From Escherichia coli (GTDB lineage Bacteria; Pseudomonadota; Gammaproteobacteria; Enterobacterales; Enterobacteriaceae): a stretch of DNA of 64,000 nucleotides. The notes under the pieces were generated by a model that was not told the DNA's origin, did not search any database, and worked only from the letters and a program-made list of their open reading frames with translations. The DNA lies in NCBI RefSeq assembly GCF_044647545.1, contig NZ_CP172818.1. The stretch is one strand, 5' to 3'. This document shows positions 7,365 to 48,415 of this stretch, in pieces. The translations under genes were made by a program, and so were the position numbers. Each line of letters starts with the position of its first letter. Within the stretch, counting starts at the first letter, position 1.

Positions 7365-7439
7365 TCAGGCAGGGGGGGGAAACCGAGTAATAATGGGATA
7401 TAAGGTAATGGTGAAAAAAGGATAAACGAAAAATAAGAA

Positions 7440-9150
7440 AGTCTATGTATGAATACGCGCTGGAACCCATGCGGTGGCCTGCCTGCAATTTGCTAAATGT
7501 TGGCTTCAGTTAACTTTATCGTTGAGTAGATAATGTAATTGTCTTGGATAGAAAAATGTGATGTAAATGTCTATATTAAAAAGATTTTAGGATGAAAATA
7601 AACTTGATGATTAAAAAAGGCTAAAAGTAAACTAGAATGAAAATTACCAATGTAACATATAAAAATGGTGAATAAACTGATAAGGTGGGAGGAAGAAAAA
7701 TAATGATAGGAATGTGCTATTCATAAATAATATCGGGTCGGTGAGAATTGATAAATTATATGTATCCGATAGATAAAAAATGATAAACTAAGAGGGTAAT
7801 GGAATTAGTATAATGAGGTAAGTAAAATAATTGATATGATCAGAGTGATGGCTGCTATCATGAAAAGTAGTTACTGAATTATGGTCTGTAAGGTATGTAG
7901 CTCTGGGGGCATAAATTAAATAAAAGAAACTATGTTCTGAGAAAAGAAATTATTATTAATAAAATGCATTGTGTAATGATAAAAATAGTTTTTGGCCTGC
8001 ATAGCGTTGTTGATAGTGAATAATTTAGGAAAAAATAGGCCAGCAGAGTGGGTTCCCTGGTCGCGCTGTCTTTGTTTGATGAACTCTTTCAGAGTGCTGT
8101 CATCATCATTTTTCATGAGTAAACTGCGACTCTTTTCAAGGTAAAAACAGTAATCAATTTGAGATTAATTGAAAACTGGAGGGCTGGCTCCTGCATTCTG
8201 CTCCTGCCGGGCTTTTTGATTTGTTAATTTTGATTTATTGTAGGGTGGCTGGCTGCTGTGATAAACTCTTTAAGCTTGCATCTTTTAACGACCTGCGGAT
8301 TGGGGGGCAAGGTTATTTTTGCTTAGATCGTGTTGTAGATAACTGATGTTTTCTACTGTATAGAAAGGAATAATCGTTTTACGTATAGAATTGGCTTAAG
8401 TCTGTGTTGGGGTTATGCGGGTAATTTGACTGATGGGAAAAATTTGGGTAATTTCAGAATGGAATATTTCTGTAAACAGTGAGAATAAGAGGTTATCAGG
8501 TAGATTTTTATGTGGCTGCTTTTTTATCTGCAACAGGGCAGCAAGGAAACGCCATCAGCTTAAGGTCTTTGGAATGCTGATATGGCTGATAAGAGCTGTA
8601 GGTAAAATCATTGGGAAATAGCTGTATAATTACGGGTGAAGTCACAATAAAATTGGGGTGTGAGTGCGGATAGGTCTGACTTTAAGCCTGCCGAGCGGCA
8701 AGGACATCGATAACGCACATTATGGAGGTAAAGAGAATAATTGTATGATACTGTCCGTCAGTTGTCGAGAATGCGTAACCTGATAAGAATAGGAAGCGTA
8801 GTAGTTACTTACTCAGATAATGCTTTGATTGATCAGGTGAGGATTATTTGGCAGGTCGGAGCTTTAAGCAGGTAGCTTGGCTGGTGTGTGGCGATAGTGT
8901 TGGTGTGCGTGGGGTTGAAGTTGGGTGCCTTGGGGTGTGTTGGTGGGGGTGTCTTGGAAGTAAGAGAGAAAAAGTGGGTGAGTGAAGTAGTAAAAGAGAA
9001 GAGAAGAAGGGAAAAAGTAAAGGTTAAGTAATTGAAAAAATGAATAAAATGAGAAAATGGAATTGAGATAAAATAATATGAAAGGTTATGAAATGATAAA
9101 TATGTGATGAATGTATTATTTATTAATAAATATATCGCCTAAAAACAACG
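7440..9150. other. cytosine-depleted, AT-rich low-complexity non-coding block
   Basis: Plus strand is almost entirely G/A/T, with G/T-rich and G/A-rich stretches; no credible ORF, RBS or RNA gene; occupies the position of pqqL-yddB-yddA-ydeM-ydeN in K-12. Confidence 0.8.
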
Positions 9151-9203
9151 CGGGGCAGGGAATGACTGCATTTAATTTTTAGTAGGGTGCGTGGTGACTC
9201 TCG

Positions 9204-9974
9204 TTAGCAAATAATCAATCCTAAAGCACTCATCGTGTTGTCCGTGTTCATACCGGTGTGCCTTTGACAACGGTACTCCTTAGAAACTCTCTTTGGACTG
9301 TTGCCGAAATGTTTGCGGAACGCATAAATAAAATAAGATGTACTCGCATAACCACATTGTTCGGCAATTTTATTGACTGAACCTTCTACGCGTATCAAAT
9401 TTTTTGCGTGCTGCATTCTGGCATCTAAAAGAATCTGTGAGAATGTCGTTTGCTCTTGCTTTAGTTTTTTCTTCAACAGGCTTTCACTGATGTACAGGCA
9501 GTCACAAATATCTTTCAGCTTCCATGGGTGCGCCAGCTTCATGTTGACAATATTTCTCACTTTCCCGGAAACGGATAGCACACCGTTAGTTAATAGTGTA
9601 ATGAAACCTTTGCATGCGGCAAAAATAGACAGGCAAGAAAAAAGCAAAAGTTCTGAAAAATTATGATGATTGCGTTCTTCCGAGTTGAGATAAGCAATCA
9701 TTTCATTAAGCAATCCAGTCGGTACATTTGAAGCACGTAAAAACTTCGCAGGAACAGGCACCGTCACTGTCTGAATGTTAGTGCATTGTAGATATTTTTT
9801 AATGGTATTTTCATTAAATCCGATTTCTTTGAAATGCCGCTCATAAGGTTCAAAATGCGTACGAACAGCGTTATCTACCATCAGGATCTCGCCGTCAGAG
9901 AAGGCGTAATCTTTATCTAAAATGTTAGCGTTGAAGGCATGATGAATAAATATAACAGAACAAACGAGCGACAT
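9204..9974 (-). CDS. ydeO: AraC-family acid-resistance transcriptional regulator YdeO
   Basis: 256-aa ORF with C-terminal AraC-type HTH; directly downstream of safA and ydeP as in the K-12 safA-ydeO operon. Confidence 0.8.
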   Translation of the reverse strand: MSLVCSVIFIHHAFNANILDKDYAFSDGEILMVDNAVRTHFEPYERHFKEIGFNENTIKKYLQCTNIQTVTVPVPAKFLRASNVPTGLLNEMIAYLNSEERNHHNFSELLLFSCLSIFAACKGFITLLTNGVLSVSGKVRNIVNMKLAHPWKLKDICDCLYISESLLKKKLKQEQTTFSQILLDARMQHAKNLIRVEGSVNKIAEQCGYASTSYFIYAFRKHFGNSPKRVSKEYRCQRHTGMNTDNTMSALGLIIC

Positions 9975-17159: not shown

Positions 17160-18482
17160 TTACTTAATACCGTATTCTCGGCTTAACCGGTCGTGCAACC
17201 TCAACACATTGGTTTCAACTGCCGTCACCACGTTCTCCGGAAAATCTGTCGGTAATGAAGTCTTCACGTTATCCAGTGCTGCTGGAATCATTCTGGCAAA
17301 GTCACTCAGGATTTCATGCATCTGCACTTCCGGGAATCTCAGCACCTTTGCTGTCGCCAAAAAATGTCGCGGATAAATTTTATCGATTGCCGTTTTTTTG
17401 CCTTTGGATGCGTTAAGCCCCATTGCCAGTTTGAGATCGCTGATGTGTATTCCCGTACCGCCAAGGACCGGAAATGCTGAAATGATGTCGTAAAATGGCG
17501 TGAGTCGATAACTGCCGCCAGCCTGAATAAATACGGAGAAGTTTTTTGCATGACCGTCCGTTGCGCCAATCAACCACTGGAAGACCTGGAATTTCATAAA
17601 ATCATAGCGATCTTTCAGCGCCTCGCTGGACCCCATCAAAAAAGCCATGATCCGCGCGATGCCTGGGCCTCCATCTGATTCATATTTCACCGATGAAGGT
17701 AAACCGAATGTCTGACACATATCCTCCTGTGGCAAGCGAAGTAAAACCGTTCGCTCAGCATTCCAACGCCTGTCAAAACGTTCGACCGCTAACGCGCGCA
17801 CATTTCCCGCTTTAATGATTTCTGCGTCCGGAACATTCAACCCAAGTTCTTTCGCCAGCAGCAGACAGTAATACTCATTATCAACGCTTTGGCTGAGATC
17901 GAGCGTCGCATTGGGCTGCCTGATTTCGCCAATCGGTAATTTAATGATGTGCGTCGTCGGCGTTATTCCTTTCGGAATGCACCAGTCATTGCCTATTCTG
18001 AGCAGTGCTGTCTTCTCCTGTGCGCCAGCAACCGAGATGCGAAAGTCATTTTCTTCTCTAATCATGCCTAGCGGGATATCTGCTTTATAAGCCGTTAATA
18101 CTTCTTCAAGTCTGGCTTCAGTAAGCTTTTCCCATGCCATTATCGGATGCGTTACGGTTTCGTCTTCGGGTATTAACGTCACGGCACCAACGCTGTCTCG
18201 CCCTATTTCTGACAATAAATCAAACGGTTGTCTGGATTTGGCATGATAACGTTTAACGATCCGGTCACGTACAATCGGGCTATCGGGTAACAGGTTATCG
18301 AAGAAGTTAAATACGGCATCAGAGGTGATATTCCCCCTCTGCAATGGCAGCGAAAGTGACAACGGTCTGGCATAACGGCTTGCTAACCACTCCGGTGCAT
18401 ACTTAAAGGTGTGCGCGCCGTTGGCTAACTTCGTTAACTCGCCTACCCGCTGGTTGTTCATCCAAGTGACAAGTTTAGGCAT
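17160..18482 (-). CDS. hipA: HipA serine/threonine kinase toxin, 440 aa
   Basis: ORF track 459 aa; trimmed to MPKLVTWMNNQRVGELT start (440 aa) whose ATG overlaps the hipB stop by 1 nt. Confidence 0.9.
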   Translation of the reverse strand: MPKLVTWMNNQRVGELTKLANGAHTFKYAPEWLASRYARPLSLSLPLQRGNITSDAVFNFFDNLLPDSPIVRDRIVKRYHAKSRQPFDLLSEIGRDSVGAVTLIPEDETVTHPIMAWEKLTEARLEEVLTAYKADIPLGMIREENDFRISVAGAQEKTALLRIGNDWCIPKGITPTTHIIKLPIGEIRQPNATLDLSQSVDNEYYCLLLAKELGLNVPDAEIIKAGNVRALAVERFDRRWNAERTVLLRLPQEDMCQTFGLPSSVKYESDGGPGIARIMAFLMGSSEALKDRYDFMKFQVFQWLIGATDGHAKNFSVFIQAGGSYRLTPFYDIISAFPVLGGTGIHISDLKLAMGLNASKGKKTAIDKIYPRHFLATAKVLRFPEVQMHEILSDFARMIPAALDNVKTSLPTDFPENVVTAVETNVLRLHDRLSREYGIK

Positions 18483-18748
18483 TACCACTCCAGATTTTGC
18501 TGTTCTGTTGATTCTGGCGAGGCATTTTTCGCGTCGCATAGCGTCATTGAGAGTTCAAGCGACTGTAAAATCTTAAAAAATGTCGTGAGCGTGGTATTGT
18601 CAGGGTTGTTTTCGAAATTGGAAATCGTCGCCTGCTTAATACCAATTTTTTTCGCCAGCTCGCTCTGCGTCCAGCCATTTTGCTGGCGAACCAGTTTCAT
18701 TGCATTCGCCAATTGCGTTGGGCTATAGATCTTCTGAAAGCTCATCAT
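18482..18748 (-). CDS. hipB: HipB antitoxin, HTH-XRE DNA-binding protein, 88 aa
   Basis: Trimmed to MMSFQKIYSPTQLANAMKLVRQQNGWTQSELAKKIGIKQATISNFENN... (88 aa); helix-turn-helix motif; immediately upstream of hipA. Confidence 0.9.
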   Translation of the reverse strand: MMSFQKIYSPTQLANAMKLVRQQNGWTQSELAKKIGIKQATISNFENNPDNTTLTTFFKILQSLELSMTLCDAKNASPESTEQQNLEW

Positions 18749-18959
18749 GTCATACGTCCACAGCAAGTTTATCCGCTTAAGGGGATATTATAAGTTTTAT
18801 CCTTTAGTGAGGATAAGTCAATCTGGAAACACATCTTATCCGCTCTACGGGATAAACGCTGCGATATCCGCGATCGCGGATAAAAAGGAGGATTTAAAAG
18901 TCGTTTGAAGTCGGCAATATTAAGCCGCATGCATCTTCGACATGCGGCTTATACGGTTT

Positions 18960-21900
18960 ACCAGCTATATTTCACACCCAGCATGCCCTGAGTATCGCTA
19001 TAGCCTTTATCACCTAGTTGCACACCGACATTCCCCCACAGGCTAAGGTTGTTATTTACTTTCGCCTCAACCCCGGTACGTACTTCACCGAGATTACGCG
19101 CACCATCACGGCTTACGGTTTGACCATTCATCTTCACGGCGTAGACTTTGCTGTTGTTGATCCAGTTCGCTTCAATGTAAGGCTGGAACTCACGCTGTTT
19201 ACCATTGTCACGCTGGTGTAGTCGTCAGCAGAACGGTTATCGGAACTGACGCTGTTATCAAACCAGTTATACAGCGCCCAGCTGTCAACATAAGCGCCGG
19301 TCTTATTCGCATCGTTCTGATACCAGGTCGCGTACAGTCCTGCGCTGTAACCGCTGATGCGCCCATCCGATTTATAACCCACATGATTACTCTGAGTATT
19401 ACTGTGCTGATTGGCATAGCCTGCCATGACGCCGAGATGCCAGCGATCCTGCGCGTTGCTACTCCACTGCGCCAAATCGCCGCCCTTGCCATATTAATGG
19501 CAGAGTCGGAACCGAAAGCAATTTCCCCCCCACGATATCCGTCGTACCCTGATACGCCGCGGAATCGTTGTTAAGAGTCAGGATCCCGGTACCCAGTTTT
19601 GTCACATCACCGCTACCGCTGATACTGTGCGTCATCGCCCAGCTACGCTCAGTGGAGATGGTGAGCAGGCCATTATTGATAACGGAAGCATCACCCAGGT
19701 TTTTCTGCTCGTTGACGCTGAGCGCGCTGCCTGTATCAATGTTGAATTGCCCCACAAAGCGGCTATTATCGCCATCCAGCTCTACATCTGTCCTGGCGGT
19801 TGCGCTCACGATACCCTTCCCGCTTATGCCATTGCGCAGTTCGCCAGTCACGTTTTTTAGCGTTAACAGACCGTTATTGGCAATATTTCCGCTGCCTAAC
19901 CCCTGCGTATTATCGAGGCTGACTTCCGCATTTGGGCTAATGCTGGTTAACGCATTGTAGCGTGCATTAAGCCCCTCGATAGCCAGCGTTCCCCCTGTAA
20001 CATTCAGGTTTCCGCCACCTGTCAGTTCACCCTGACTGATCCCACCTTTATTTACCGTCAGCGCCCCCTCTTTGAACAAAACAGTCGAACCCATCTGCCC
20101 GGTGAATGTCTCTACCGTCTGCGTCGATCCATTAAGATCGACGATGGCCGCGTTGCTGATGTTCAGTTCCCGGGTGTTGCCAAGTGCACCATCCGCATCG
20201 GTACGTAATGTCCCCATCTGAACGTAGGTTGCCCCCTGATAGTCGTTCTGAGCGTTGGAAAGCGAAACCTGTCGCACCGTATTGATTGCCAGATCCCCTT
20301 CACCACCGATTTTTGCCGACATATCGGCCGTTGCGCCATAGGCTCCGCCATGTTCGGCTAACGTCAGCTTTTGCCCTCCATGGATGTTCAGCGCTTTCAG
20401 CCCATAGTTAACGTACAAACCATCACCTGGTGCGGTCGTGAGGCGGAATCCATAATCACCCTCGGCGACCACCGTTCCGTTTTGCGCAATGTGTAACGTT
20501 TTGTCCGCTTCCACCTCGTCGCCCTGTAAATCACGTAACGTTAATGAGCCACCCGACCCAATAACCGTTTGCGCCTTCACCAGTTGAACGCCGACATGGC
20601 TATCATCGTGTTCCAGCAAATTGAGCGTCGTCAGAGGGTTATTCGCCATGGGATCATTCCACGGTTTAGGCACGTCGATAAGCACGTCGCCCGTCCCGTT
20701 TACCTTATAGTTACGGCCTTTCCAGGTGTAGTCACTCGCGCCGACAACCAGCGTATCGACGCTGATATATCCCTCTGCAAGCGTCGCAGCAGGAATATCC
20801 GTATCGAAAATGAGCGTACCGCCATTCATGGCCAGTCCACCAATGGATTGCTCTCCCACGTTTACCGATGTGGTATTTTCAATGTCAGACTGCAACATCG
20901 CGTGAGTAAGCGCAGCGGTGTTGTCGCGTTCCAGAGTGAAGGTACTGTCTTTCAGTTGGGCAACACCGGCGAATTCAGTCCCTGTTGCATGGGTAAAGCC
21001 AAACATCTTGTCGGAGGATGACAGCTGCACTCGCATCAAGCCATCGCCTTTGAGCGCATTGGTCAGCGTGTAATCTCCTGCGCTGTTCGTTGATGCGAGA
21101 ATGTCGAGCGTACCGGGGCTTGCAATGGTGACTTCACTCGAACCCATGCCTGTTACCCCATCTGCCGTATGTGACGCAATAGTCAGGAGGCCGTCATTGA
21201 CCAGCGTTTTACCGCTATAAGTATTCCCTGCATTGAACACCGTATGGCCTGCATCATGCATCACTTTTCCGTCTTTATCGTCACCCGTAATCAGCATATC
21301 GACCTGGTAGCCGGCATCACTGTTATTGGTATGATTAAAGACAAAAACGCCTTCGCCAAGACCAAACTCCACTTTCGTCGCATTGGTAATAAACCCGGCA
21401 TCTGCCGCTACCTCACCGTGAGCAGCACCAATGTTTAGCGTTCCTACAGCAGGCTCAAAAACACCTAAGTAAACTTCTCCACCTTCGACATTCAGCGTGC
21501 CGTTATTCGTCAGGGTTAACGTACCTGTGCCAGTCGTCCCTACGTTCATATTGAATGTTTCAAGAAGAGAGTTCTGCCCATCCACCCGCACGTCGCCCTT
21601 ACTTTTGTCATTCAGAGCTATCTGTGTATCACGCGCTTTAACTATACCTCCGGTGGTAATATTCAGTTCACCCGTGCCTAATACACCGACCTGTAGCAAT
21701 TGGGCGTTAGTAGATGACGTTTTTAAATTCCAGAGACTATGCGTTGAAATATTAACTATCCCCTTACCGGAGGCATTTCCTCCGATAAATCCATAGCCCG
21801 TTGAATTAAGGGTGGCACCATTACTGACATTTACGATGCCGCTACCAAAATTACCGACATTGATACCTACAGTATCGAACGATGATGTCGCATCCATCAG

Positions 21901-23361
21901 GTTCAGTGTGCCGATACCGCTTGCTTTATCGCCCAAAAAAGTAATATTTTGCGATACGAACTTACCGCCATCGCTGATATTGAGGTTTCCGACGCCCGCA
22001 ACACCAATAGTGGTATAGACATTCTTATTGACCTCCCACATCCCCCCCGTGGTGATGCTAACCTTCCCGACGCCGGTTTCTCCATAACCGAGTGAGCTTC
22101 CTCCGTTGCTGACAACAAGCCCCTCATTACTGATATTCATTTCGCCGTGGCCGTCATAACCAAGATTAGTTCCGAGATTAGTGATAACGGAGTTCTTATC
22201 CTTAACAGTAATGTTGCCTGTGCCTGTTTCTTTCATCCCCGCAGTGATAATTCCCGAATCGACTTTGCCTTCACTAGAGACATTAAGTTCACCGTCGCCA
22301 GCATCACCGATATAGATATAGCGGAAAGCTTCGCCCGTTCCGAGGAAATTCCAATGCCCTTTATCGGTCACGTTGACGACACCGTGGGAACCGTCCTGAA
22401 CGCCCACCAATGAATATTCTTTGTTATTAATCAGTCCATTATTGGAAATATTGACTTTGCCATTACCGAAATATCCATTATAGAGTCTGCGTACCGTAAT
22501 GACAGAGTCTTGATCCTGCACATTCAGGGTTCCGATACCGGTGGCATTGCCACCGATAATCGTATTTTCAGCCGTAATTAGCCCACCCTCGCGAATAGTC
22601 GCTTCCCCAGTTCCTTGATTACCAATTTGAAATTCAATTGAGGAATCGTTATTTTTCATTAGCCACTCACCGCCCTTTTCAACGACAACCTGGCCATTAC
22701 TGCCCGCCTGATAGCCTAAAATGGCGACGATTGAACTCGTGACGTAACCCTTATCCGTAATATTTAATGAGCCCGTACCGTAACTCCCTATTTCGAATAA
22801 TTCGGTCGTCAAAACCGAGTCCTCTTCCTCAACATTAACCGTCCCGACGCCTGCAGCTTGAGTACCTAATCTTAAATAGCCTCCATCGACGTGACCCTTC
22901 TGTTTAATATTCAGCGTCCCCGTTCCGGATTGACCCACATTTAAAGGCCTTGCATTATTTCCGCTATCATACAATCGCCAGGTGCCACCCAAAACATTAA
23001 CGGTGCCCTCTGAGTCCTCATTAGCGCCAATGACGCTGGTAGTAATAGTGGTTAAGGAGGCATTACCGCCAGCCAAAATATTAAGCACTCCAGTGCCATA
23101 CCAGCCAACCAGGTAGGCATCATAAGCAACATTAGTATCAATATTGGTAATCTGATCATTATCAACTTCCAGACTTGCACCAGACGCTGAACCGCTTAGT
23201 GCCAGCAAAACACCCAGCGTCAATCTACTGAGTTTCGTTGTCAGTCCAGAGGATTTACGCAAATTAACCGTCGATGTTTTACCTACCCTGCGAGTTAATT
23301 CCGAGCAGACCTGAAATGCCTGTAGGGTGCAATTCCATATCACGCGATAGATTCTATTCAT
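18960..23361 (-). pseudogene. yneO: AIDA-I-like autotransporter adhesin, frameshifted (yneO/ydeK)
   Basis: 1300-aa passenger ORF with repetitive G/N/T-rich beta-helix repeats, plus two further ORF fragments (19134-19475, 19208-19492) carrying beta-barrel motifs; C-terminus ends ...VKYSW at 18960; at least two frame changes between 19134 and 19500. Confidence 0.8.
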
Positions 23362-23890
23362 ATAAACGCTCCATATACAAACAATACAGCCACGAAAGAG
23401 ATGAGTCGTCAGACATTAAAAATGAAACTTATTAAATTGTCAGAGGTCTGTATTGAGTGTTGGTTGGAGGTGGGAAGGTGTCAATTTGGCTAATTTGCTA
23501 ATACTTTCGAATTGATAGATTAAAAATTGCATAGTTCTTATTTTATTTAAAAATGAACCATGAGTTATTGTTGCTTAATAAGAAAAATATTTCTTTCAAT
23601 AAGAAAATTACCATCATCATATTTAACAAAGAATAGCACTAATTGCTAAAAAAGAACTCTATTAAAACTCTTTTTCATTCATTTATGCCTTTAGGAATAT
23701 TCGCTATAAAATAAGGGTTATGCTTAATGTTTTAAGAAAAATAGCAATTTTCCCTTGAATATAGTACTGGCGATGGAACGATGAATCTGCAAGCTGGCAT
23801 TTAACAAGCCAGTTCTAAAAGAAGGGAAATAAGAATAACTATACTCAAAAACTAACAGCCACGGTCATCATGATGTGGCTGTCAATGAAA

Positions 23891-25483
23891 CTATAACCCA
23901 GGCGCTTTCCATAACGACGTCGTCAGTCCATGATCAACCAGCCCCAGCTGATCCTGATAAACTGCCTGCCACTTATCGCGTGAATCCTGATAAAGTTCAT
24001 GCTTTTCTGGGTCTGGTGTGTGCGTCCGTTCCCAGCGAACCAGGCGTTCTCCGGTTTCTGCCATTGATGAAAAAATTCCGGCACCGACGCCAGCTGCAAT
24101 GGCACATCCTAATGCAGTGGCTTCTTTGACCACCGGAATATTGACGGGTAATCCCGAGACATCAGCGAGAATTTGACTCCATAATTTCCCTTTTGAACCT
24201 CCGCCTGCAAAGACTAGAGATGTGGGATGAATATTCGAAAAATCAGCAATTTGCTGCAAGTTACACGCTGATACAATCGCCGCATTTTCTTCCAGCGCAC
24301 GGAACAATGTCGCTTTGTTACATTTATCCGGGTCAATGGACAAGTTAATAAAGGAAGGCGCAGCGTGATACCAGGTTTTAAAGCGCATTCTGTCGGAGAA
24401 TATCGGCATTACGCCCCACGACCCAGGCGGCACACGACTTGCCATCTCTTCAAGCAGCGTATAGGTGTCGATGCCTAAACGTTCGGCAATCAGTTTTTCT
24501 TCGGCACAGAAAGCATCGCGGAACCAGCGCATGGTGAGTCCGGTAAAAAAGCTTATAGATTCAGCTTGTACCATGCCAGGAATAACATGGGGATTAACGC
24601 GCACGTTCATTTCTGGGTCTGTCACCGGCGCGGCTAAGTTTACAACTTGCTGCCAGAATGTACCGCCAAGAACCGCGGTTTGTGCCGGACGGACAACGCC
24701 TAACCCCAGGCAACCAAGCTGCACGTCACCTCCTCCAACGACCACCGGAGTGCCCGCCTTCAGACCGCAGAGTTCCGCCGCTTGTGAACTTACCACGCCC
24801 AGCAATGTGCCGGTTTCTTTGACAGGAGAAAGAATATCGGCCCGCAGTCCGGCCATATCCAGCAATGCAGGTTTCCAGTCACGGGTGGTTAGATCAAGAA
24901 GTCCCGTGGTGCCAGCGTTAGAGGGATCCACCGCCAGTTCGCCGCTGAGCATATAGGCCAGCCAGTCGCTGATCATGGTGATGGTCGACGCCTGTCGGTA
25001 GATATCGGAACGATGGTGCGCCAGCCAAAGTAATCTGGGGATGGCGCTTAAAGCCAGCGTTTGCCCGGTCGCTCGATAAACTTTGTTTTCAAAGGTATTG
25101 TTGTGCAGTTCTTTAAGTTCGCTAACTTCGCGCGCCGCTCTGGCATCCACATTGGCGCAGGCCCAGATCGGTGTTCCATCATTGTTATATAAAACAATGC
25201 CTTCACGCATCGAACATGCCGAAACGGCAGCGATATACTCCGGGGCTATGCCGGCGTTGTGCAGCGCCTGGCGCATACACTCACACGCCAGTTGCCAGTT
25301 TTTGTTGAGATCAAATTCCATAGAACCAGGAACGTCCGGTACTGCCAGGTGCCGCCACTCCGCCTGTCTCACGGCTATTTGATTGCCTTCCAGGTCGAAT
25401 ATCACAGCCCGAATACTTCCGGTACCTGCATCCAGCGCCATCAGGTAATACTTTGATTCTGAAGGGGTAAAGAGTCGAGCCAT
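23891..25483 (-). CDS. lsrK: autoinducer-2 kinase LsrK, 530 aa
   Basis: FGGY-family carbohydrate kinase-like 530-aa ORF adjacent to and co-oriented with lsrR, divergent from lsrACDBFG. Confidence 0.9.
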
Positions 25484-25561
25484 TAGATTATCCTCGGCTT
25501 ATGCGTTCTGTCTGTTCCTCTATACGTTCTCCATCATTCCCGGTAATAAGGTCATGCAAAT

Positions 25562-26515
25562 TTAACTACGTAAAATCGCCGCTGCTGTATCCTGATCGGT
25601 AACCAGTGCGTTGATATAACCGCCTTTCATTGCAGCGGCAATTGCTTCGGCTTTATTTTCTCCCCCTGCCACGCCAACCCGGACGGGTATGGTCTTCAGC
25701 GCGCTTAAAGGTAAGCCAATCAGTTCGTTATGTATTTTAATATCCGTGACAACGTCACCTTTTGCATCAAAAAAGTAGCCTAAAATGTCGCCAACCGCCC
25801 CTTTTCGACCAATCATTAACTGTTCGCCCTGGCTGATATAGCCGGAGCGAATGATTGTTGCGTCGTCTTGTTGACTCACAGCCCCAATGCCGACAATCGC
25901 CACATCCGCTGCTTGCGCGGCTAGCAGAACATCTTTGACGCAATTTTCATTTTTTAACGTACGGGCAATGTCAGCGGAGGATGCCCGCAACGGAGCCGGA
26001 ATAATATTCACACTGCACGCCGCGTTAAGCTGCCCGATACCCGTCATATAAGAACCGACTCCACCGGAGAGCGTGACCAGGCGAATTTGCTGTGACGAAA
26101 TAAAACCACTTAAGCGTTGCAGCGTATTCATGGTTGCCTCGCCAAAACCAATCGCCAGCATCTGTTGTGGTTGAAGTAAACTCATCAACATATGCGCCGC
26201 GCCTATCCCTAGTCGCCCGCCGACATCAGCATCCGCAAGCCCTGGGATCACCCGGACATGTTGCAGCGAAAACTGACGACGTAATTGTGTTTCATATTCC
26301 AGACAGCCTTCAAAGCGAGAATTAATCTGTACGCGAATAATGCCGGATTGATGCCCTTTCTCCAGTAATCGCGACACTTTCAAACGGGTCAGGCCGAGAC
26401 GATCGCTGATCTCACTCTGGGTCAGCCCGTCATGGTAGTAAAACCACGCAATCCGCGCGACCTGTTCTTCTTCACACATTCCCTGTTCTGAAATTACCGA
26501 ATCGTTGATTGTCAT
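25562..26515 (-). CDS. lsrR: lsr operon repressor LsrR (SorC family), 317 aa
   Basis: N-terminal HTH and SorC-type sugar-phosphate-binding domain; divergent from lsrA. Confidence 0.9.
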
Positions 26516-26763
26516 AATTCATTCTTCACTTTGAACATACTTAAATCTTTAATGCAATTGTTCAGTTCTTGCGCATTTATATCTGTGATGGCAACCACAG
26601 TTTGACTCTATGAGTATGAACAAACGCAACCGTGAAAATCAAAATAGCATAAATTGTGATCTATTCGTCGGAAATATGTGCAATGTCCACCTAAGGTTAT
26701 GAACAAATTAAAAGCAGAAATACATTTGTTCAAAACTCACCTGCAAAACTGAACGGGGGAAAT
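26516..26763. promoter_or_regulatory. divergent lsrR / lsrA promoter-operator region
   Basis: 248-bp AT-rich intergenic region between divergently transcribed lsrR and lsrA; known site of LsrR and CRP control in K-12 (established knowledge, individual sites not mapped here). Confidence 0.6.
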
Positions 26764-28299
26764 ATGCAAACGAGTGATACCCGCGCGTTACCGCTACTTT
26801 GCGCCCGCTCGGTTTATAAACAGTATTCAGGAGTTAATGTCCTGAAAGGCATCGATTTTACGTTGCATCAGGGGGAGGTCCACGCCCTGCTCGGCGGCAA
26901 TGGTGCCGGTAAATCGACGTTAATGAAGATTATTGCCGGTATTACCCCTGCTGATAGCGGTACGCTGGAGATTGGGGGCAACAACTACGTCAGATTAACG
27001 CCAGTTCATGCTCATCAGCTGGGCATTTATCTCGTTCCCCAGGAACCGCTGCTTTTTCCAAGCCTGTCGATAAAAGAAAACATCCTGTTTGGTCTGGCAA
27101 AAAAACAACTCTCCATACAGAAAATGAATAACTTGCTGGCGGCGCTGGGCTGCCAGTTTGATCTGCATAGTCTGGCAGGATCGCTGGATGTCGCCGATCG
27201 CCAAATGGTGGAAATCCTCCGCGGGCTGATGCGCGATTCGCGAATTCTGATCCTCGATGAACCTACCGCCTCGCTTACTCCCGCCGAAACCGAACGTTTG
27301 TTTATTCGCTTGCGGGAGTTGCTTGCTACTGGCGTGGGTATTGTTTTTATCTCGCATAAGCTGCCGGAAATTCGCCAGATTGCCGACCGAATTAGCGTGA
27401 TGCGCGACGGAACCATCGCCTTAAGCGGCAAAACCAGCGAACTGTCTACCGACGACATTATTCAGGCCATTACGCCAGCGCTACGGGAAAAATCGCTCTC
27501 TGCCAGCCAAAAATTATGGCTGGAATTACCTGGCAACCGCCCACAACATGCCGCGGGAACGCCGGTGCTGACACTGGAAAATCTGACCGGCGAAGGTTTC
27601 AGGAATGTCAGCCTGACGCTCAATGCCGGAGAAATTCTGGGCCTGGCTGGGCTGGTGGGAGCCGGACGCACAGAACTGGCCGAGACGCTCTATGGTCTGC
27701 GTACTTTGCGTGGCGGACGCATTATGCTGAATGGTAAAGAGATCAATAGATTATCCACCGGAGAACGTTTACTGCGCGGTCTGGTTTATCTGCCGGAAGA
27801 TCGCCAGTCATCCGGACTTAATCTCGATGCTTCACTGGCGTGGAACGTCTGCGCCCTTACTCATAACCTTCGTGGATTCTGGGCGAAAACCGCGAAAGAT
27901 AACGCCACACTGGAACGTTATCGTCGGGCGCTGAATATTAAATTTAACCAACCGGAACAAGCTGCGCGGACCTTATCCGGCGGCAACCAGCAAAAAATCC
28001 TGATTGCCAAATGTCTGGAAGCTTCGCCGCAAGTTTTGATTGTCGATGAGCCGACGCGCGGCGTGGATGTCTCGGCGCGTAATGATATCTACCAACTGTT
28101 GCGCAGCATCGCCGCACAAAATGTGGCTGTGCTGCTTATCTCCTCTGATCTGGAAGAGATCGAACTGATGGCAGATCGCGTGTATGTGATGCATCAGGGC
28201 GAAATTGCCCACTCTGCACTGACCGGACGCGATATTAATGTCGAGACCATTATGCGCGTTGCCTTCGGAGATAGTCAGCGTCAGGAGGCGTCATGCTGA
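26764..28299 (+). CDS. lsrA: AI-2 ABC transporter ATP-binding protein LsrA, 511 aa
   Basis: Two ABC ATPase domains (Walker [10 protein letters not shown]; signature LSGGNQQK). Confidence 0.9.
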
Positions 28300-29321
28300 A
28301 ATTTATTCAGAACAACCGTGAAATCACGGCACTGCTGGCGGTGGTGCTGCTGTTTGTATTACCCGGTTTTCTCGACCGTCAGTATTTAAGTGTGCAAACG
28401 CTGACCATGGTTTATAGCAGCGCGCAAATCCTGATCCTGCTGGCAATGGGCGCGACGCTGGTAATGCTTACGCGCAATATTGATGTTTCAGTGGGTTCGA
28501 TTACCGGAATGTGCGCGGTGCTGTTGGGGATGTTACTGAACGCGGGGTATTCACTACCTGTTGCTTGTGTCGCGACTTTACTGCTTGGTTTGCTCGCGGG
28601 ATTTTTCAACGGTGTCCTGGTCGCGTGGCTAAAGATCCCTGCCATTGTTGCCACCCTTGGCACGTTAGGGTTGTACAGAGGCATCATGTTGCTGTGGACT
28701 GGCGGTAAATGGATTGAGGGATTACCCACCGAACTGAAACAACTCTCCGCCCCGCTGCTGTTTGGCGTTTCCGCGATTGGTTGGTTGACGATAATTCTGG
28801 TGGCATTTATGGCCTGGCTGCTGGCAAAGACGGCGTTTGGACGCAGTTTTTATGTCACGGGCGATAATTTACAGGGCGCTCGTCAACTGGGCGTTCGTAC
28901 GGAAGCCATTCGCATTGTGGCATTTTCGTTGAACGGCTGCATGGCGGCACTGGCGGGAATTGTGTTTGCTTCGCAGATTGGTTTTATCCCCAACCAGACC
29001 GGTACCGGGCTGGAGATGAAAGCAATTGCAGCCTGCGTGCTGGGCGGCATTAGTTTGCTCGGCGGTTCCGGCGCGATCATCGGTGCGGTACTCGGCGCAT
29101 GGTTCCTGACGCAGATCGATAGTGTACTGGTGCTGTTGCGCATTCCGGCATGGTGGAATGATTTTATCGCGGGCATGGTTCTGCTGGCGGTGCTGGTGTT
29201 TGATGGACGCCTGCGTTGTGCGCTGGAACGTAATCTGCGGCGGCAAAAATATGCCCGCTTTATGATGCCACCGCCATCCGTTAAACCCGCTTCGTCAGGT
29301 AAAAAACGGGAGGCCGCGTAA
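28293..29321 (+). CDS. lsrC: AI-2 ABC transporter permease LsrC, 342 aa
   Basis: Polytopic membrane ORF overlapping lsrA stop; synteny. Confidence 0.9.
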
Positions 29322-30313
29322 TGCGTATTCGCTACGGTTGGGAACTGGCTCTTGCCGCACTGCTCGTTATTGAGATTGTTGCATTTGGTGCAATTAACCC
29401 GCGGATGTTAGATCTCAATATGTTGCTGTTCAGCACCAGTGACTTTATCTGCATTGGCATTGTCGCCCTACCGCTGACGATGGTGATTGTCAGTGGTGGG
29501 ATCGATATTTCGTTTGGTTCGACCATCGGCCTCTGCGCCATTGCATTGGGCGTACTGTTTCAAAGTGGTGTGCCGATGCCGCTGGCGATTCTTCTGACCT
29601 TACTGCTCGGCGCATTGTGCGGGTTGATCAACGCCGGATTAATTATCTATACCAAAGTTAACCCGCTGGTGATTACGCTTGGCACGCTGTATCTGTTTGC
29701 CGGAAGCGCCCTGCTGCTTTCCGGGATGGCCGGAGCGACGGGGTACGAAGGTATTGGTGGATTCCCGATGGCGTTTACAGATTTCGCTAACCTGGATGTG
29801 CTGGGACTCCCCGTTCCGCTGATTATCTTCCTGATATGTCTCCTCGTTTTCTGGCTCTGGCTGCATAAAACCCATGCCGGACGTAACGTGTTTTTAATTG
29901 GGCAAAGCCCGCGTGTGGCGGTTTATAGCGCGATTCCAGTTAACCGCACCTTGTGTGCGCTCTATGCCATGACGGGGCTGGCGTCTGCGGTCGCCGCTGT
30001 GCTGCTGGTATCGTATTTTGGTTCAGCACGTTCCGATCTCGGTGCGTCGTTTCTGATGCCCGCCATCACCGCCGTAGTGCTCGGCGGTGCCAATATTTAT
30101 GGTGGTTCTGGTTCCATTATCGGCACCGCCATAGCGGTTTTATTAGTGGGATATTTGCAACAAGGTTTGCAAATGGCAGGAGTGCCAAATCAGGTGTCCA
30201 GCGCCCTTTCCGGTGCGCTACTTATCGTCGTTGTCGTAGGTCGTTCCGTTAGCCTGCATCGCCAGCAAATTAAAGAGTGGCTGGCGCGTCGGGCCAATAA
30301 CCCATTGCCATAA
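29321..30313 (+). CDS. lsrD: AI-2 ABC transporter permease LsrD, 330 aa
   Basis: Polytopic membrane ORF, start overlaps lsrC stop; synteny. Confidence 0.9.
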
Positions 30314-30324
30314 AGGATATCTTC

Positions 30325-31347
30325 ATGACACTTCATCGCTTTAAGAAAATCGCCTTACTTAGCGCGCTTGGCATTGCCGTAATCTCTATGAATGTGCAGG
30401 CGGCAGAGCGTATTGCATTTATTCCCAAACTGGTTGGCGTGGGATTTTTTACCAGCGGTGGCAACGGCGCACAACAAGCGGGTAAAGAGCTGGGCGTTGA
30501 TGTGACCTACGACGGGCCGACAGAACCCAGTGTTTCTGGTCAGGTACAGTTGATTAATAACTTCGTCAATCAGGGTTATAACGCCATTATCGTTTCTGCG
30601 GTTTCGCCTGATGGCTTGTGTCCGGCACTGAAACGCGCCATGCAACGTGGTGTGAGAGTGCTGACCTGGGACTCTGATACTAAACCGGAGTGCCGCTCTT
30701 ACTACATTAATCAGGGAACGCCCGCCCAGTTGGGAGGTATGTTGGTGGATATGGCGGCGCGTCAGGTGAATAAAGACAAAGCCAAAGTCGCGTTTTTCTA
30801 CTCAAGCCCCACCGTTACGGACCAAAACCAGTGGGTGAAAGAAGCGAAAGCGAAAATCGCCAAAGAGCATCCAGGCTGGGAAATTGTCACTACGCAGTTT
30901 GGCTATAACGATGCCACTAAATCGTTACAAACCGCAGAAGGAATATTAAAAGCCTATAGCGATCTCGACGCCATTATCGCCCCCGATGCCAATGCCCTGC
31001 CCGCTGCCGCACAAGCCGCAGAAAACCTGAAAAATGACAAAGTTGCGATTGTCGGATTCAGTACGCCAAACGTGATGCGTCCATATGTGGAACGCGGCAC
31101 GGTGAAAGAATTTGGCCTGTGGGATGTGGTTCAGCAAGGCAAAATTTCAGTTTATGTCGCGGATGCATTATTGAAAAAAGGATCAATGAAAACGGGCGAC
31201 AAGCTGGATATCCAGGGCGTAGGTCAGGTGGAAGTCTCGCCAAACAGCGTTCAGGGCTATGACTACGAAGCGGATGGTAATGGCATCGTACTGTTACCGG
31301 AGCGCGTGATATTCAACAAAGAGAATATCGGCAAATACGATTTCTGA
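30325..31347 (+). CDS. lsrB: AI-2 periplasmic binding protein LsrB, 340 aa
   Basis: Signal peptide plus periplasmic sugar-binding-protein fold length; synteny. Confidence 0.9.
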
Positions 31348-31373
31348 TGTGCATTACTTAACCGGAGTACGTT

Positions 31374-32249
31374 ATGGCAGATTTAGACGATATTAAAGAT
31401 GGTAAAGATTTTCGTACCGATCAACCGCAACAAAATATCCCTTTTATCCTGAAAGGTTGCGGTGCACTGGATTGGGGAATGCAGTCACGCTTATCGCGGA
31501 TATTTGATCCGAAAACGGGTAAAACCGTGATGCTGGCCTTTGATCATGGTTATTTTCAGGGGCCGACTACCGGACTTGAACGCATTGATATAAATATCGC
31601 CCCGCTGTTTGAACATGCAGATGTATTAATGTGTACGCGCGGCATTTTGCGCAGCGTAGTTCCCCCGGCGACCAATAAGCCGGTGGTACTGCGGGCGTCA
31701 GGTGCGAACTCTATTCTGGCGGAATTAAGTAATGAAGCCGTGGCGTTATCGATGGATGACGCCGTGCGCCTGAACAGTTGCGCGGTGGCGGCGCAGGTTT
31801 ATATCGGCAGCGAATATGAACATCAGTCGATCAAAAATATTATTCAGCTGGTCGATGCCGGAATGAAAGTGGGAATGCCGACCATGGCCGTGACAGGCGT
31901 GGGCAAAGATATGGTGCGCGATCAACGTTATTTCTCGCTCGCGACTCGAATCGCCGCTGAAATGGGGGCGCAGATTATCAAAACTTATTATGTCGATAAA
32001 GGTTTTGAACGGATTGTTGCCGGATGTCCGGTACCCATTGTTATTGCTGGCGGTAAAAAGTTACCGGAGCGCGAGGCGCTGGAAATGTGCTGGCAGGCTA
32101 TCGATCAGGGCGCTTCTGGTGTGGATATGGGACGTAATATTTTCCAGTCTGACCATCCGGTGGCGATGATGAAAGCCGTACAGGCGGTGGTACACCATAA
32201 CGAAACGGCTGATCGGGCATATGAACTCTATCTGAGTGAAAAACAGTAA
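31374..32249 (+). CDS. lsrF: 3-hydroxy-2,4-pentanedione-5-phosphate thiolase LsrF (aldolase-like), 291 aa
   Basis: Class I aldolase-like ORF following lsrB. Confidence 0.85.
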
Positions 32250-32272
32250 CTGCGGATTTAAGGAGAAGAATT

Positions 32273-32563
32273 ATGCACGTCACACTGGTTGAAATTAACG
32301 TTCATGAAGACAAGGTTGACGAGTTTATCGAAGTTTTTCGCCAGAACCACCTGGGCTCGGTACAGGAAGAAGGCAATTTGCGCTTCGATGTCTTACAGGA
32401 CCCGGAAGTGAATTCGCGCTTTTATATCTACGAAGCTTATAAAGATGAAGACGCAGTGGCGTTCCATAAAACCACGCCCCACTACAAAACCTGTGTCGCA
32501 AAACTGGAAGCTTTAATGACCGGGCCGCGTAAAAAACGTCTGTTCAATGGATTGATGCCGTGA
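32273..32563 (+). CDS. lsrG: phospho-AI-2 isomerase LsrG, 96 aa
   Basis: 96-aa ORF (antibiotic-biosynthesis-monooxygenase-like size) at end of lsr operon. Confidence 0.85.
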
Positions 32564-32619
32564 GGCGAATTTATCAGTTTTATCTACACTAGGGGTAACG
32601 CGCTGACGGGAGTAAAAAT

Positions 32620-33378
32620 ATGTCTGACTGGAACCCCTCTTTATATCTGCACTTTGCCGCTGAACGATCGCGTCCGGCGATGGAGCTGCTTGCCAGAGTG
32701 CCGCTGGAGAATATCGAATACGTTGCCGATCTTGGCTGTGGCCCAGGTAACAGCACCGCACTGCTGCATCAACGTTGGCCTGCTGCCAGAATAACGGGCA
32801 TCGACTCGTCTCCGGCGATGATTGCTGAAGCGCGCAGTGCTTTGCCAGACTGCCAGTTCGTGGAAGCAGACATCCGCAACTGGCAACCGGAACAGGCACT
32901 CGATCTGATTTTTGCTAATGCCTCACTGCAATGGCTGCCCGCCCACTACGAATTGTTCCCTCATCTGGTTTCTTTACTTAATTCGCATGGTGTGTTGGCA
33001 GTACAGATGCCAGATAACTGGCTAGAGCCAACCCATGTGCTCATGCGCGAAGTCGCCTGGGAACAAAATTATCCGGATCGCGGGCGTGAGCCGCTGGCTG
33101 GCGTTCATGCTTACTACGATATTTTGAGCGAAGCCGGATGTGAGGTCGATATCTGGCGAACCACTTACTATCACCAGATGCCGTCGCACCAGGCGATTAT
33201 CGATTGGGTGACCGCCACTGGATTACGTCCGTGGTTACAGGATCTGACCGAGAGCGAACAGCAGCATTTTCTTACGCGCTACCATCAGATGCTGGAAGAG
33301 CAGTATCCACTGCAAGAGAACGGAGAGATACTGCTGGCATTTCCGCGTCTGTTTATTGTTGCCCGGCGTACGGAGTAA
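32620..33378 (+). CDS. tam: trans-aconitate 2-methyltransferase Tam, 252 aa
   Basis: SAM-methyltransferase motif ([12 protein letters not shown]); synteny after lsrG. Confidence 0.85.
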
Positions 33379-33381
33379 ATA

Positions 33382-34296
33382 TTACGTCAGCTGGTAATGA
33401 CGATCGGGAAGAATTTTTGCTGGAATTTCTGCTTCATCGTTCATCTGTAACAGGTCAATTTCAATAGCGTTGCAGATGGCATCCAGCGGTAAATCATTGT
33501 TTTCAATACCGAAGGGATCTTCCAGTTCTTCCGCCAGACAATCCAGCGAAATAAAAGTGTAGGAAATCAGCACAGAGATAAAAGGCGTCATGTAATGCAG
33601 ATCCACGACCAGCGCGAACGGCAGCATGATACAAAACAGATAAACGGTACGATGCAAAATCAGGGTGTAGGCAAAGGGAATTGGCGTATAGGCAATGCGC
33701 TCGCAGCCTGCCAGAACCGCTGAAATATCGTTAAGCCGATCGTTGAGGCTAATAAACAGGATATCTGAAAGCTGCCCATTGCGGCGCTGAACCGCCAACC
33801 ACTCCCCCATTATTAACAAGATACGGTTAGCTGGAGAGTTCGAAGTCAGTACACGCTGAAGATCTTCCGTCTTGAGATATTGAGCCAGCACTTCCGCCTG
33901 TGGTTGTTTGCGTAATGTCATGCGTAAACAGTGAGCGAAGGCGATTTGCAGCCGGGCAAACTCCCTTACACTTGCCGAATCCGGCAATGTCGTTTTTACC
34001 TCGCGCAGTAACGACCGTGAGGCAATCATCAACTGCCCCCAAAGTTTTCGCGCTTCAACGTAACGGGCGTAACCGGCATTATTACGAAAACCAAGAAAAA
34101 TGGCGATGGCGACACCGAGAATGCTGAACGGTGCGAGGGTGAATTTGATGCCCAGATGCGTGTACCAGGGCAGCATGAAAATAACAGCGATAGAAAAGAG
34201 AAAATTGAGTAGTAAACGCGAGGATATCTTGGATAATACTGAGCCGTGCCAGACAAAAATACGGCGCAGCCAGTGTTGTTGTGGACGAACAATCAT
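33382..34296 (-). CDS. yneE: bestrophin-family membrane protein YneE, 304 aa
   Basis: ORF track 321 aa; trimmed to MIVRPQQHWLRRIF start (304 aa); multi-pass membrane protein. Confidence 0.75.
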   Translation of the reverse strand: MIVRPQQHWLRRIFVWHGSVLSKISSRLLLNFLFSIAVIFMLPWYTHLGIKFTLAPFSILGVAIAIFLGFRNNAGYARYVEARKLWGQLMIASRSLLREVKTTLPDSASVREFARLQIAFAHCLRMTLRKQPQAEVLAQYLKTEDLQRVLTSNSPANRILLIMGEWLAVQRRNGQLSDILFISLNDRLNDISAVLAGCERIAYTPIPFAYTLILHRTVYLFCIMLPFALVVDLHYMTPFISVLISYTFISLDCLAEELEDPFGIENNDLPLDAICNAIEIDLLQMNDEAEIPAKILPDRHYQLT

Positions 34297-34492
34297 GGTT
34301 ATCTTCAGGCGTGGAAAAGTCGCCCTATTAAACGTGATTACGATCACATTCTCAAGACACTACTTACAAATTACCTACAAGCTTACAACATTAACAGGTG
34401 CTGCATGTAGCACCTGTTAATGATAAAGGCACATAGGATGTTGTAACTAATATAGTGAAATAAGAAACCCGGTCGAAACCGGGTTCAGAGTA

Positions 34493-35944
34493 TTAGCACA
34501 ACGGACGTACAGCTTCGCGCATTCCTTTTTCGAGAATCGCATCCAGGTCATTAGCAACCTGCTCGACCAGACCAGGCACTTGCGTCAGGTCCTGCTCCCA
34601 GTGGTCTTTTTCTGCCAAAACAATCGCTACCAGTTCCTGGGTGCCGATAACACGGTTACGATGCTGGCTCCAGAGTTGCTGATAACGTTCCAGCCAGTGG
34701 GCATCGTCCTGTACCGGATATGTTTCTCCATTACGCTCACCGCGATAGAACGCAATCAATGCTGCTAATGCGAAAGTAAGGCGCGCCGGAAGTGTGCCGT
34801 TTGCCTTCTGCCCTGCCAGCAGCTGCGGCAGGATACGGGTGCGGAACTTGGTCATACCGTTGAGCGCGATAGACAGCAGCTGATGCTTAATGTACGGGTT
34901 ACGGAAACGCCCGGTGACAGCACTGGCGAAAGATTCCAGTTCATCACGAGGCAAATCCAGTACCGGAATAATCTCTTCGTAGATGGCTTTTTCAACGAAT
35001 GCGCAAATTTCAGCATCGTTCATCGCTTCACCTACGGTATCCAGCCCTGCCTGGAACGCCACCGGCACCAGCGCGGTGTGCGCACCGTTGAGGATTGCCA
35101 CTTTGCGCTCTTTATACGGTTTAATATCGTCAACAATCAGCACGTTGAGCGGATATTTGTCCAGACGCAGCTCAGTCGCTAAGGATTTCGGCCCCTGAAT
35201 CACAAACAGGTAAAAGTGTTCAGCGGTGTCGAGGAAACCATCGTGATAACCCAGTTCTTCTTCCAGTTTAGCCACTTCATCACGCGGATAGCCGGTAACG
35301 ATACGGTCCACCAGCGTAGAACAGAAGCTGTTAGCCTGATCCAGCCATTGAATAAATGCTTCTGGCAGTGCCCACTCTTGCGCGTAGCGCAGCACCAGTT
35401 CACGCAGTGCATCGCCGTTATAGTCGATCAGTTCACATGGTATGATGATCCAACCTTTATCCTGCGCTCCGTTGAAATGGCTAAAACGTTCGAACAGCAG
35501 ACGGGTCAGTTTTGCCGGATAACTTACCGCTGGCGCGTCATCGAATTTATCGCCCGCATGGTAGCTGATACCCGCTTCGGTGGTGTTAGAGAAAACAAAG
35601 CGCATTTCCGGGTTGTGCGCCAGTTTCAGGAATTCATCGTATTCACTGTAGACGCTGATTTCACGATTAACAGAGCGAATCAGACGCGCGTCGCTGACCG
35701 CTTCCCCCTTCTCGTTCAGACCACGGATAATGGTGGTGTACAGACCATCCTGCGTGCTCAGTGACGGCGGGAATGAAGTTTCAATCGGACGAACAACGAC
35801 CACGCCAGAATTCAGATCGGTGTGCTCATTCAGGAGATCGATTTGCCAGTCAACAAAGGCGCGCAGGAAGTTACCTTCACCAAACTGAATGATACGTTCT
35901 GGATACTGTGCACCGGGAAAATCGCGACGATTTAGTGTTTTCAC
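34493..35944 (-). CDS. uxaB: altronate oxidoreductase UxaB (tagaturonate reductase), 483 aa
   Basis: 483-aa mannitol-dehydrogenase-family ORF; synteny. Confidence 0.85.
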
Positions 35945-37119: not shown

Positions 37120-37199
37120 AGGCCAGAAATCCAGACTATCAATACTGACCGAACCAATCCCCCAAATACCATAATAATCGGCAATCAGACAGTAATTAA

Positions 37200-37500
37200 A
37201 TACCTAACACTTACTCTCATACTTATTTTTCCCCAAACCTTATCCCCACGACCAAACGACAAAAATAAACATCATATAGAAATTGATACCAGAAACCCCC
37301 CCATCTTTACACATAAACCACACCCACAAACGACGCAAGAAGACGATAAACCAAAAAAGAAAACCCCCCAAACGAAAAAAAAAAAAAGGAAAACCAAAAA
37401 AAAAAAAAAAAAAAAAAAAAAAAGAAAAAAAAAAGAAAAAAAAAAAAAAAAGAAAGGGAAAAAAATAAAAAAGAAAAAAAAAAAAAAAAAGATAGCATGT
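37200..37500. repeat. A/C-rich low-complexity block with long poly-A runs
   Basis: Plus strand nearly devoid of G/T from about 37200, then A-runs up to about 27 nt punctuated by single G (37376-37490); yields Lys-rich/Phe-rich spurious ORFs. Confidence 0.9.
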
Positions 37501-48244: not shown

Positions 48245-48340
48245 ATGCTGGGTAATATGAATGTTTTTATGGCCGTACTGGGAATAATTTTATTTTCTGG
48301 GTTTCTGGCCGCGTATTTCAGCCACAAATGGGATGACTAA
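48245..48340 (+). CDS. mgtS: small membrane protein MgtS (YneM), 31 aa
   Basis: ATG at 48245: MLGNMNVFMAVLGIILFSGFLAAYFSHKWDD stop; below the ORF-track size cut-off; followed by an intrinsic terminator. Confidence 0.8.
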   Translation: MLGNMNVFMAVLGIILFSGFLAAYFSHKWDD

Positions 48341-48367
48341 TGAACGGAGATAATCCCTCACCTAACC

Positions 48368-48408: not shown

Positions 48409-48415
48409 GACGGCG

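Follow-up and report, generated by a model that had tools for sequence, protein, structure and literature searches.

The stretch of Escherichia coli DNA analysed here (contig NZ_CP172818.1, 64,000 nucleotides, hereafter the window) carries at positions 23891-32563 what is almost certainly a canonical, functional Lsr system for the uptake and processing of autoinducer-2 (AI-2), its functions being assigned by analogy with the K-12 and Salmonella literature. An open reading frame (ORF) map of positions 22000-35000 gave eight frames, lsrK and lsrR on the minus strand and lsrA, lsrC, lsrD, lsrB, lsrF and lsrG on the plus strand, and these fill exactly the coordinates proposed by a first-pass annotation of the window. 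The divergence of lsrK and lsrR from lsrACDBFG, proposed there as well, is likewise found in the annotation of a chromosome with a 100% identical locus and in K-12 MG1655. In a megablast against 5,426 complete E. coli genomes, many chromosomes matched the entire 8,673-nt query at 100% identity, among them those of IMT16316, FDAARGOS_497 and a strain called ST648; all of them are annotated with lsrK, lsrR and lsrACDBFG. An Rfam scan at gathering thresholds found no RNA gene within 23891-32563. The lsr locus here is already known and nothing about it is new; the earlier opinion that this is a well-known system without apparent novelty is borne out by a textbook locus in its ordinary state, identical to that of many strains.

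Integrity and family membership of the Lsr proteins

All eight genes had been called full length, and comparison of each protein with its K-12 MG1655 counterpart agrees with this: the lengths are the same, and each protein carries one to nine substitutions without truncation. Frameshifts, premature stops and length changes were looked for in all lsr genes and none was found. Nucleotide identity to K-12 ranges from 96.6 to 98.3% per gene, and 201 of 8,295 coding bases differ, yet these changes alter only 31 amino acids over the eight proteins (LsrK 6, LsrR 2, LsrA 9, LsrC 5, LsrD 1, LsrB 2, LsrF 5, LsrG 1; those in LsrR are A7V and N258D). With stops and frameshifts absent, this is the pattern expected under purifying selection. 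Furthermore, each of the eight proteins scores above its curated NCBIfam equivalog cut-off over its full length (Table 1), whereas the models of paralogous systems (Rbs, Als, Ara, XylB, DeoR and others) all give scores under their own cut-offs.

Residues of functional importance are also in place. LsrF has Lys203, known as its catalytic Schiff-base lysine. LsrA has a Walker A motif at residue 44, Walker B motifs at 161 and 424 and the LSGGNQ signature of ATP-binding cassette (ABC) proteins at 404, and neither these motifs nor LsrF Lys203 are touched by any substitution relative to K-12. In LsrB, all six AI-2-contacting residues (K35, D116, D166, Q167, P220 and A222, precursor numbering) are present, the criterion being that of Pereira et al. 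2009 (quoted in PMC6166536). Solved E. coli structures are matched over their full length and near-identically by LsrR (4l5i/4go1), LsrK (5ya0), LsrB (5gta), LsrF (3gkf/4p2v) and LsrG (3qmq), and LsrB in addition matches the LsrB structure 1tjy.

The gene junctions are as previously described. The ATG of lsrC overlaps the TGA of lsrA by 7 nt (ATGCTGA, 28293-28299), the ATG of lsrD overlaps the TAA of lsrC by 1 nt (TAATG, 29321), and a GGAGG-type Shine-Dalgarno sequence precedes both starts. From this junction geometry, translational coupling at lsrA/lsrC and lsrC/lsrD is a reasonable prediction. The transcript probably runs on through the downstream gene tam, because the gap between lsrG and tam holds neither a terminator-like site nor a stable hairpin (z = -0.41); PMC8085971 names such a unit, "lsrACDBFG-tam". 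The functional Lsr genes end at 32563.

Proposed mechanism and its biological meaning

What the window itself shows is the gene content and its integrity, the family membership of the proteins, and the conservation of functional residues and regulatory sites; the biochemical activities and the regulatory logic would be those described for K-12 and Salmonella. The near-identity of the window's proteins to characterised and crystallised K-12 proteins points to AI-2 import, phosphorylation and degradation and to release of LsrR by phospho-AI-2. The mechanism, which is established K-12/Salmonella knowledge summarised in PMC5137460 and bioRxiv 10.64898/2026.06.09.730415, would run as follows. AI-2 would be bound by LsrB in the periplasm, imported by the LsrA/LsrC/LsrD ABC transporter and phosphorylated by LsrK. 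Phospho-AI-2 would then free tetrameric LsrR from two operators in the 248-bp control region, leading to de-repression of both lsrRK and lsrACDBFG(-tam). Expression would need cAMP-CRP as an activator and would hence be blocked by preferred sugars. Finally, LsrG would isomerise phospho-AI-2 and LsrF would cleave the product, which would end the signal.

Three points weigh against a functional canonical system. The four control-region and 31 amino-acid substitutions relative to K-12 might affect function, although all of them belong to alleles common to many genomes. The signal synthase gene luxS lies outside the 64-kb window. In addition, a simple sigma-70 consensus scan of the lsrR/lsrA intergenic region returned no strong promoter for the lsrA or lsrR starts; the scan is uninformative here, its outcome being that expected of activator-dependent promoters.

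The machinery might alternatively serve chiefly for carbon scavenging, as a pentose-like route of uptake and catabolism, instead of communication. Sugar systems contain close paralogues of the Lsr proteins (RbsA/AlsA/AraG for LsrA, the rhamnose-binding protein for LsrB and xylulokinase for LsrK), lsr expression is CRP-dependent, and a 2026 preprint (bioRxiv 10.64898/2026.06.09.730415) argues that AI-2 acts like a non-phosphotransferase-system (non-PTS) carbon source. However, this proposal concerns the biological meaning of the locus and not its identity, it is compatible with a canonical Lsr system, and no sequence feature tells communication from scavenging. We regard it as unlikely.

The control region and candidate LsrR operators

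The divergent control region between lsrR and lsrA, previously described as intact, measures 248 bp and aligns to K-12 without a gap. Its alignment to the reference showed four substitutions, none of which falls in the LsrR-box elements, the two CRP sites or the CytR-like site (PMC5137460 and PMC8487509; Table 1). The definitions of the LsrR boxes are second-hand, through these two papers, the latter citing Xue et al. 2009 for the p-lsrA-box. The CRP sites were located by a consensus scan (TGTGA-N6-TCACA) and appear to be CRPII and CRPI of PMC5137460, because of the order of the boxes in Fig. 2 of that paper. Shortly downstream of the CRPI-like site comes TGTGCAAT, which in PMC5137460 is set very near the CRPI box.

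Our analysis also revealed a pair of inverted repeats, TGAACA-N21-TGTTCA, one close to each of the two gene starts. The pattern occurs exactly twice in the 64-kb window, both times in the control region, where shuffled sequences gave an expectation of 0.00. The lsrR-proximal repeat encloses both published p-lsrR-box elements, and the lsrA-proximal repeat abuts the published p-lsrA-box without coinciding with it. Identity of the p-lsrA-box with the lsrA-proximal repeat was considered and rejected, as the elements AAAACT and AAAACTGAA quoted from PMC8487509 lie just downstream, at 26732-26753.

Divergent lsr loci from plasmid-collection records were compared with the window, four genera being sampled in all. 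In these loci the repeat with 21-nt spacing is confined to the lsrR-lsrA intergenic region. Salmonella has two perfect copies, beside lsrR and lsrA, and a central third with one mismatch; Klebsiella has a perfect copy beside lsrA and a two-mismatch copy beside lsrR, and Enterobacter has the same. Among the Enterobacteriaceae loci, conservation covers the two arms, their spacing and an inner ATTTAA block, and the spacer is otherwise divergent. A protein-binding site would be expected to leave such a footprint. Two further forms of the repeat hint at a 21-nt-spaced operator with a range well beyond E. coli: the degenerate lsrR-side copy of Klebsiella and Enterobacter is CGAACA-N21-GAGTTCA-like (records L013 and L014, about 2116 and 2165), and Bacillus sp. 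N5-665 (record L017, about 2008-2040) has a perfect-armed variant, AGAACA-N21-TGTTCT, upstream of an lsrR homologue.

We infer that each 33-bp repeat would be the full operator for one LsrR tetramer: the outer hexamers recur in the operator of DeoR, a protein that binds as a tetramer and resembles LsrR in structure. The true LsrR operators may be the two conserved palindromes instead of the short A/T-rich "boxes" of the literature. A text search, not extending to Xue et al. 2009, found no paper tying LsrR to TGAACA/TGTTCA hexamers other than the DeoR paper PMC11229326. For lsr promoter engineering, the pair of conserved 33-bp repeats would offer a cleaner working definition of the LsrR operators.

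Table 1. Positions in the window of the lsr genes, tam and the elements of the control region, with NCBIfam model, score and cut-off for each Lsr protein. Box elements follow the papers named.
Feature	Position	Strand	Remarks
lsrK	23891-25483	-	autoinducer-2 kinase, 530 aa (ORF list, annotation of identical genomes); NF008187, 998.6 bits, cut-off 528
lsrR	25562-26515	-	SorC/DeoR-type repressor released by phospho-AI-2, 317 aa (ORF list, annotation of identical genome); NF011947, 619.9 bits, cut-off 486
lsrR/lsrA divergent control region	26516-26763		248 bp
lsrR-proximal inverted repeat TGAACA-N21-TGTTCA	26532-26564		17 nt from lsrR start; putative LsrR operator
K-12 difference 1, T>C	26540		-224 from lsrA ATG
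p-lsrR-box element AAGATTTAA	26541-26549	reverse	9 bp; PMC5137460
p-lsrR-box element AACAAT	26557-26562	reverse	PMC5137460
K-12 difference 2, T>G	26573		-191 from lsrA ATG
CRP-like site CRPII, ATCTGTGATGGCAACCACAGTT	26581-26602		22-mer, 9/10 core against TGTGA-N6-TCACA; identical to K-12
K-12 difference 3, C>T	26611		-153 from lsrA ATG
K-12 difference 4, C>T	26615		-149 from lsrA ATG
CRP-like site CRPI, AATTGTGATCTATTCGTCGGAA	26652-26673		22-mer, perfect TGTGA half-site, 6/10 core; identical to K-12
putative CytR half-site TGTGCAAT	26677-26684		named in PMC5137460; identical to K-12
lsrA-proximal inverted repeat TGAACA-N21-TGTTCA	26700-26732		32 nt from lsrA start; probable LsrR operator; identical to K-12
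p-lsrA-box element AAAACT	26732-26737	+	PMC8487509; identical to K-12
p-lsrA-box element AAAACTGAA	26745-26753	+	PMC8487509; identical to K-12
lsrA	26764-28299	+	ABC transporter ATPase, two nucleotide-binding domains, 511 aa; NF011967, 954.2 bits, cut-off 586
lsrC	28293-29321	+	permease, 342 aa; NF011961, 664.3 bits, cut-off 388
lsrD	29321-30313	+	permease, 330 aa; NF011612, 597.1 bits, cut-off 500
lsrB	30325-31347	+	periplasmic AI-2-binding protein, 340 aa; NF011937, 700.1 bits, cut-off 384
lsrF	31374-32249	+	3-hydroxy-5-phosphonooxypentane-2,4-dione thiolase, 291 aa; NF006081, 558.8 bits, cut-off 297
lsrG	32273-32563	+	phospho-AI-2 isomerase, 96 aa; NF007791, 191.3 bits, cut-off 135
tam	32620-33378	+	trans-aconitate methyltransferase; outside AI-2 processing; 56 nt past lsrG, same strand

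Control-region variants in the population

The locus could be intact and still be a regulatory variant: the four substitutions, above all T>C at 26540 in the lsrR-proximal operator, would then give it an LsrR/CRP set-point different from that of K-12. Position 26540 (-224) is a spacer position of the lsrR-proximal 33-bp repeat, where it adjoins the conserved ATTTAA block; it falls within -237 to -197, the stretch taken as the p-lsrR box in PMC5137460, and directly abuts the 9-bp AAGATTTAA. The same paper reports that promoter strength was raised by mutations near the two p-lsrR elements, besides those inside them. At this column a majority of the related operators share the K-12 base, and the base of the window occurs in none of those compared. 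Nevertheless, across eight operator copies from four species this is a non-conserved spacer column (column 19; A, T or G), so that a strong effect of the 26540 change is improbable, and all core elements of the control region are unchanged.

The distribution of the alleles also speaks against a special regulatory state. The control region is carried by 4,178 of the 5,426 complete genomes, 798 of them at 99% identity or more, and a 46-bp query across the p-lsrR box with the 26540 allele was matched exactly in about 545 of 4,160 genomes. The four variants occur in differing combinations in the six strains sampled, and none of the seven polymorphic columns falls in a core element. Common alleles in varied combinations are therefore ordinary standing polymorphism. 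A shifted set-point is decidedly unlikely, and there is only a slim chance that the four-substitution allele might measurably retune LsrR autoregulation, and hence the AI-2 uptake threshold, in the ~13-19% of E. coli sharing it. A private regulatory mutation was rejected, all four variants being shared polymorphisms outside the core elements.

Completeness of the locus among E. coli genomes

The lsr locus is labile in E. coli, and many strains lack AI-2 reception (PMC3595036), which raises the question of a decaying, non-functional remnant. Some lsr match is present in 5,323 of the 5,426 complete genomes, whereas at least 80% of the locus is present in 4,174 only; hence roughly a fifth keep nothing but a remnant, and about 1,150 genomes have a partial lsr match without the control region. 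These partial loci are consistent with the recurrent loss of AI-2 reception described in PMC3595036, where luxS was retained in all natural strains examined. Moreover, the autotransporter gene neighbouring lsrK in the window is a pseudogene. For the window's own locus, however, decay is very improbable: the eight full-length ORFs without stops or frameshifts effectively refute it, the amino-acid-changing share of the nucleotide differences from K-12 is about 15%, and the functional residues and NCBIfam scores are those of intact Lsr proteins.

The strain can therefore be counted among the sequenced E. coli, about three-quarters of the total, that have a complete AI-2 reception and quenching system. 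It should hence be capable of clearing AI-2 from its environment and of responding to it, which strains with a truncated lsr locus cannot do (PMC3595036). Beyond annotation, the finding is of little importance. As a side observation, the annotated lsrA of E. coli O157:H7 493/89 (record L009, 209-248) exceeds the usual length by 39 nt (1,575 nt in all); its start lies 40 nt before the usual ATG and out of frame with it, which suggests an early lsrA indel or an annotation quirk in that lineage.

Flanking regions and sequence quality

Colinearity of the whole window with FDAARGOS_497 was considered and rejected; it is broken outside the lsr locus, the locus itself being unaffected, and the alignment ends at about 59548. 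Two stretches of the window look corrupted. In the first (~6990-9220), runs of 10, 48 and 114 G (6996-7005, 7175-7222 and 7249-7362; GC content up to 86%) are followed by about 1.8 kb with 2-7% C and a GC skew of up to +0.72. This segment stands in place of about 10.3 kb (pqqL-yddB-yddA-ydeM-ydeN) of other E. coli, and a gappy 78% match to ydeM at 7659-8055 is all that remains of it. At its right edge the differences from FDAARGOS_497 are almost all missing C's. The second stretch (~37160-37490) is at first depleted of G and then consists almost wholly of A, with A runs of 10-28 nt. It falls in the 5' part of a minus-strand gene for a dgcF-like sensor diguanylate cyclase; most of its differences from FDAARGOS_497 are missing G's, and it is about 165 nt shorter than its counterpart there. 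The dgcF-like gene measures 1,419 nt in FDAARGOS_497 and dgcF of K-12 948 nt. Since the edge differences are almost purely missing C's or G's, both stretches look like base drop-out in the assembly and not like biology; they are probably assembly or consensus artefacts and should be given no biological interpretation. That part of the lsr locus is an artefact of the same kind is hardly credible despite these poly-G/C-depleted and G-depleted/poly-A segments, because the locus has a normal base composition, no homopolymer of 10 nt or more and 100% identity to many independent complete genomes, which refutes it, and the closest anomaly is 4.6 kb off.

Upstream of lsrK, the autotransporter pseudogene (18954-23361, minus strand; ECSE_1600 family, yneO in K-12) has two internal gaps, of 233 and 785 nt, when set against the gene of SCU-301, which is intact and 5,421 nt long. 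Also missing, at 19484, is a 4-nt CTAG found in FDAARGOS_497, whose copy of the gene is annotated as frameshifted. Genes of the hipBA toxin-antitoxin system lie at about 17160-18750 by colinearity with SCU-301 (window ~17160-18805, minus strand). The FDAARGOS_497 stretch contains nothing that corresponds to about 1.6 kb of the window (17221-18827), though the lsr loci are identical; the flank is therefore mosaic relative to that genome. At ~16372 a ydeQRS-type fimbrial operon is truncated, with about 3.3 kb of SCU-301 missing (the N-terminal part of the usher, the chaperone and a fimA-like major subunit); FDAARGOS_497 has IS2 in the same region. Above gathering score, Rfam placed the Hfq-binding small RNA STnc560 at 48334-48547, IS009 at 59471-59668 and a cspA-type thermoregulator 5' untranslated region at 63534-63951, near the right end of the window, all on the minus strand. 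The region of FDAARGOS_497 corresponding to the last of these holds prophage tail-fiber genes.

Comparison with known systems

The closest known system is that of E. coli K-12 MG1655 (b1511-b1518), which has the same gene order, orientation, lengths, spacing and overlaps and the same 248-bp control region, with all published regulatory elements identical. The 31 amino-acid and four control-region substitutions that separate the two are allelic and shared with many natural E. coli. The Lsr system was first defined in Salmonella enterica, which has the same divergent lsrRK / lsrACDB... arrangement and an LsrR 78% identical to that of the window. The same TGAACA-N21-TGTTCA lies beside lsrR and lsrA, but unlike the window, Salmonella has the third, central copy with its one mismatch. 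Salmonella also has an extra gene, lsrE, absent from E. coli (PMC5137460); in the window tam comes after lsrG.

Bacillus subtilis DeoR, a SorC/DeoR-subfamily regulator like LsrR, binds as a tetramer and is very similar to LsrR in structure, both proteins being tetramers (PMC11229326). Its operator, quoted there as ATTGAACA...TGTTCAA, has the outer hexamers of the two lsr repeats. The outer arms are 24 nt apart in the quoted DeoR operator and 21 nt apart in the 33-bp lsr repeats, to which LsrR presumably binds. The effector of DeoR is deoxyribose-5-phosphate or a related compound, in contrast to phospho-AI-2 for LsrR, and the regulated genes differ.

Finally, the transporter resembles CUT2-type sugar importers: LsrA, LsrC and LsrD are matched second best, and strongly, by RbsA/AlsA/AraG and RbsC/AraH/AlsC, and LsrB matches the rhamnose-binding protein. 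These matches are far under the cut-offs of the sugar-importer families, whereas the Lsr cut-offs are passed and the AI-2-binding residues of LsrB are present.

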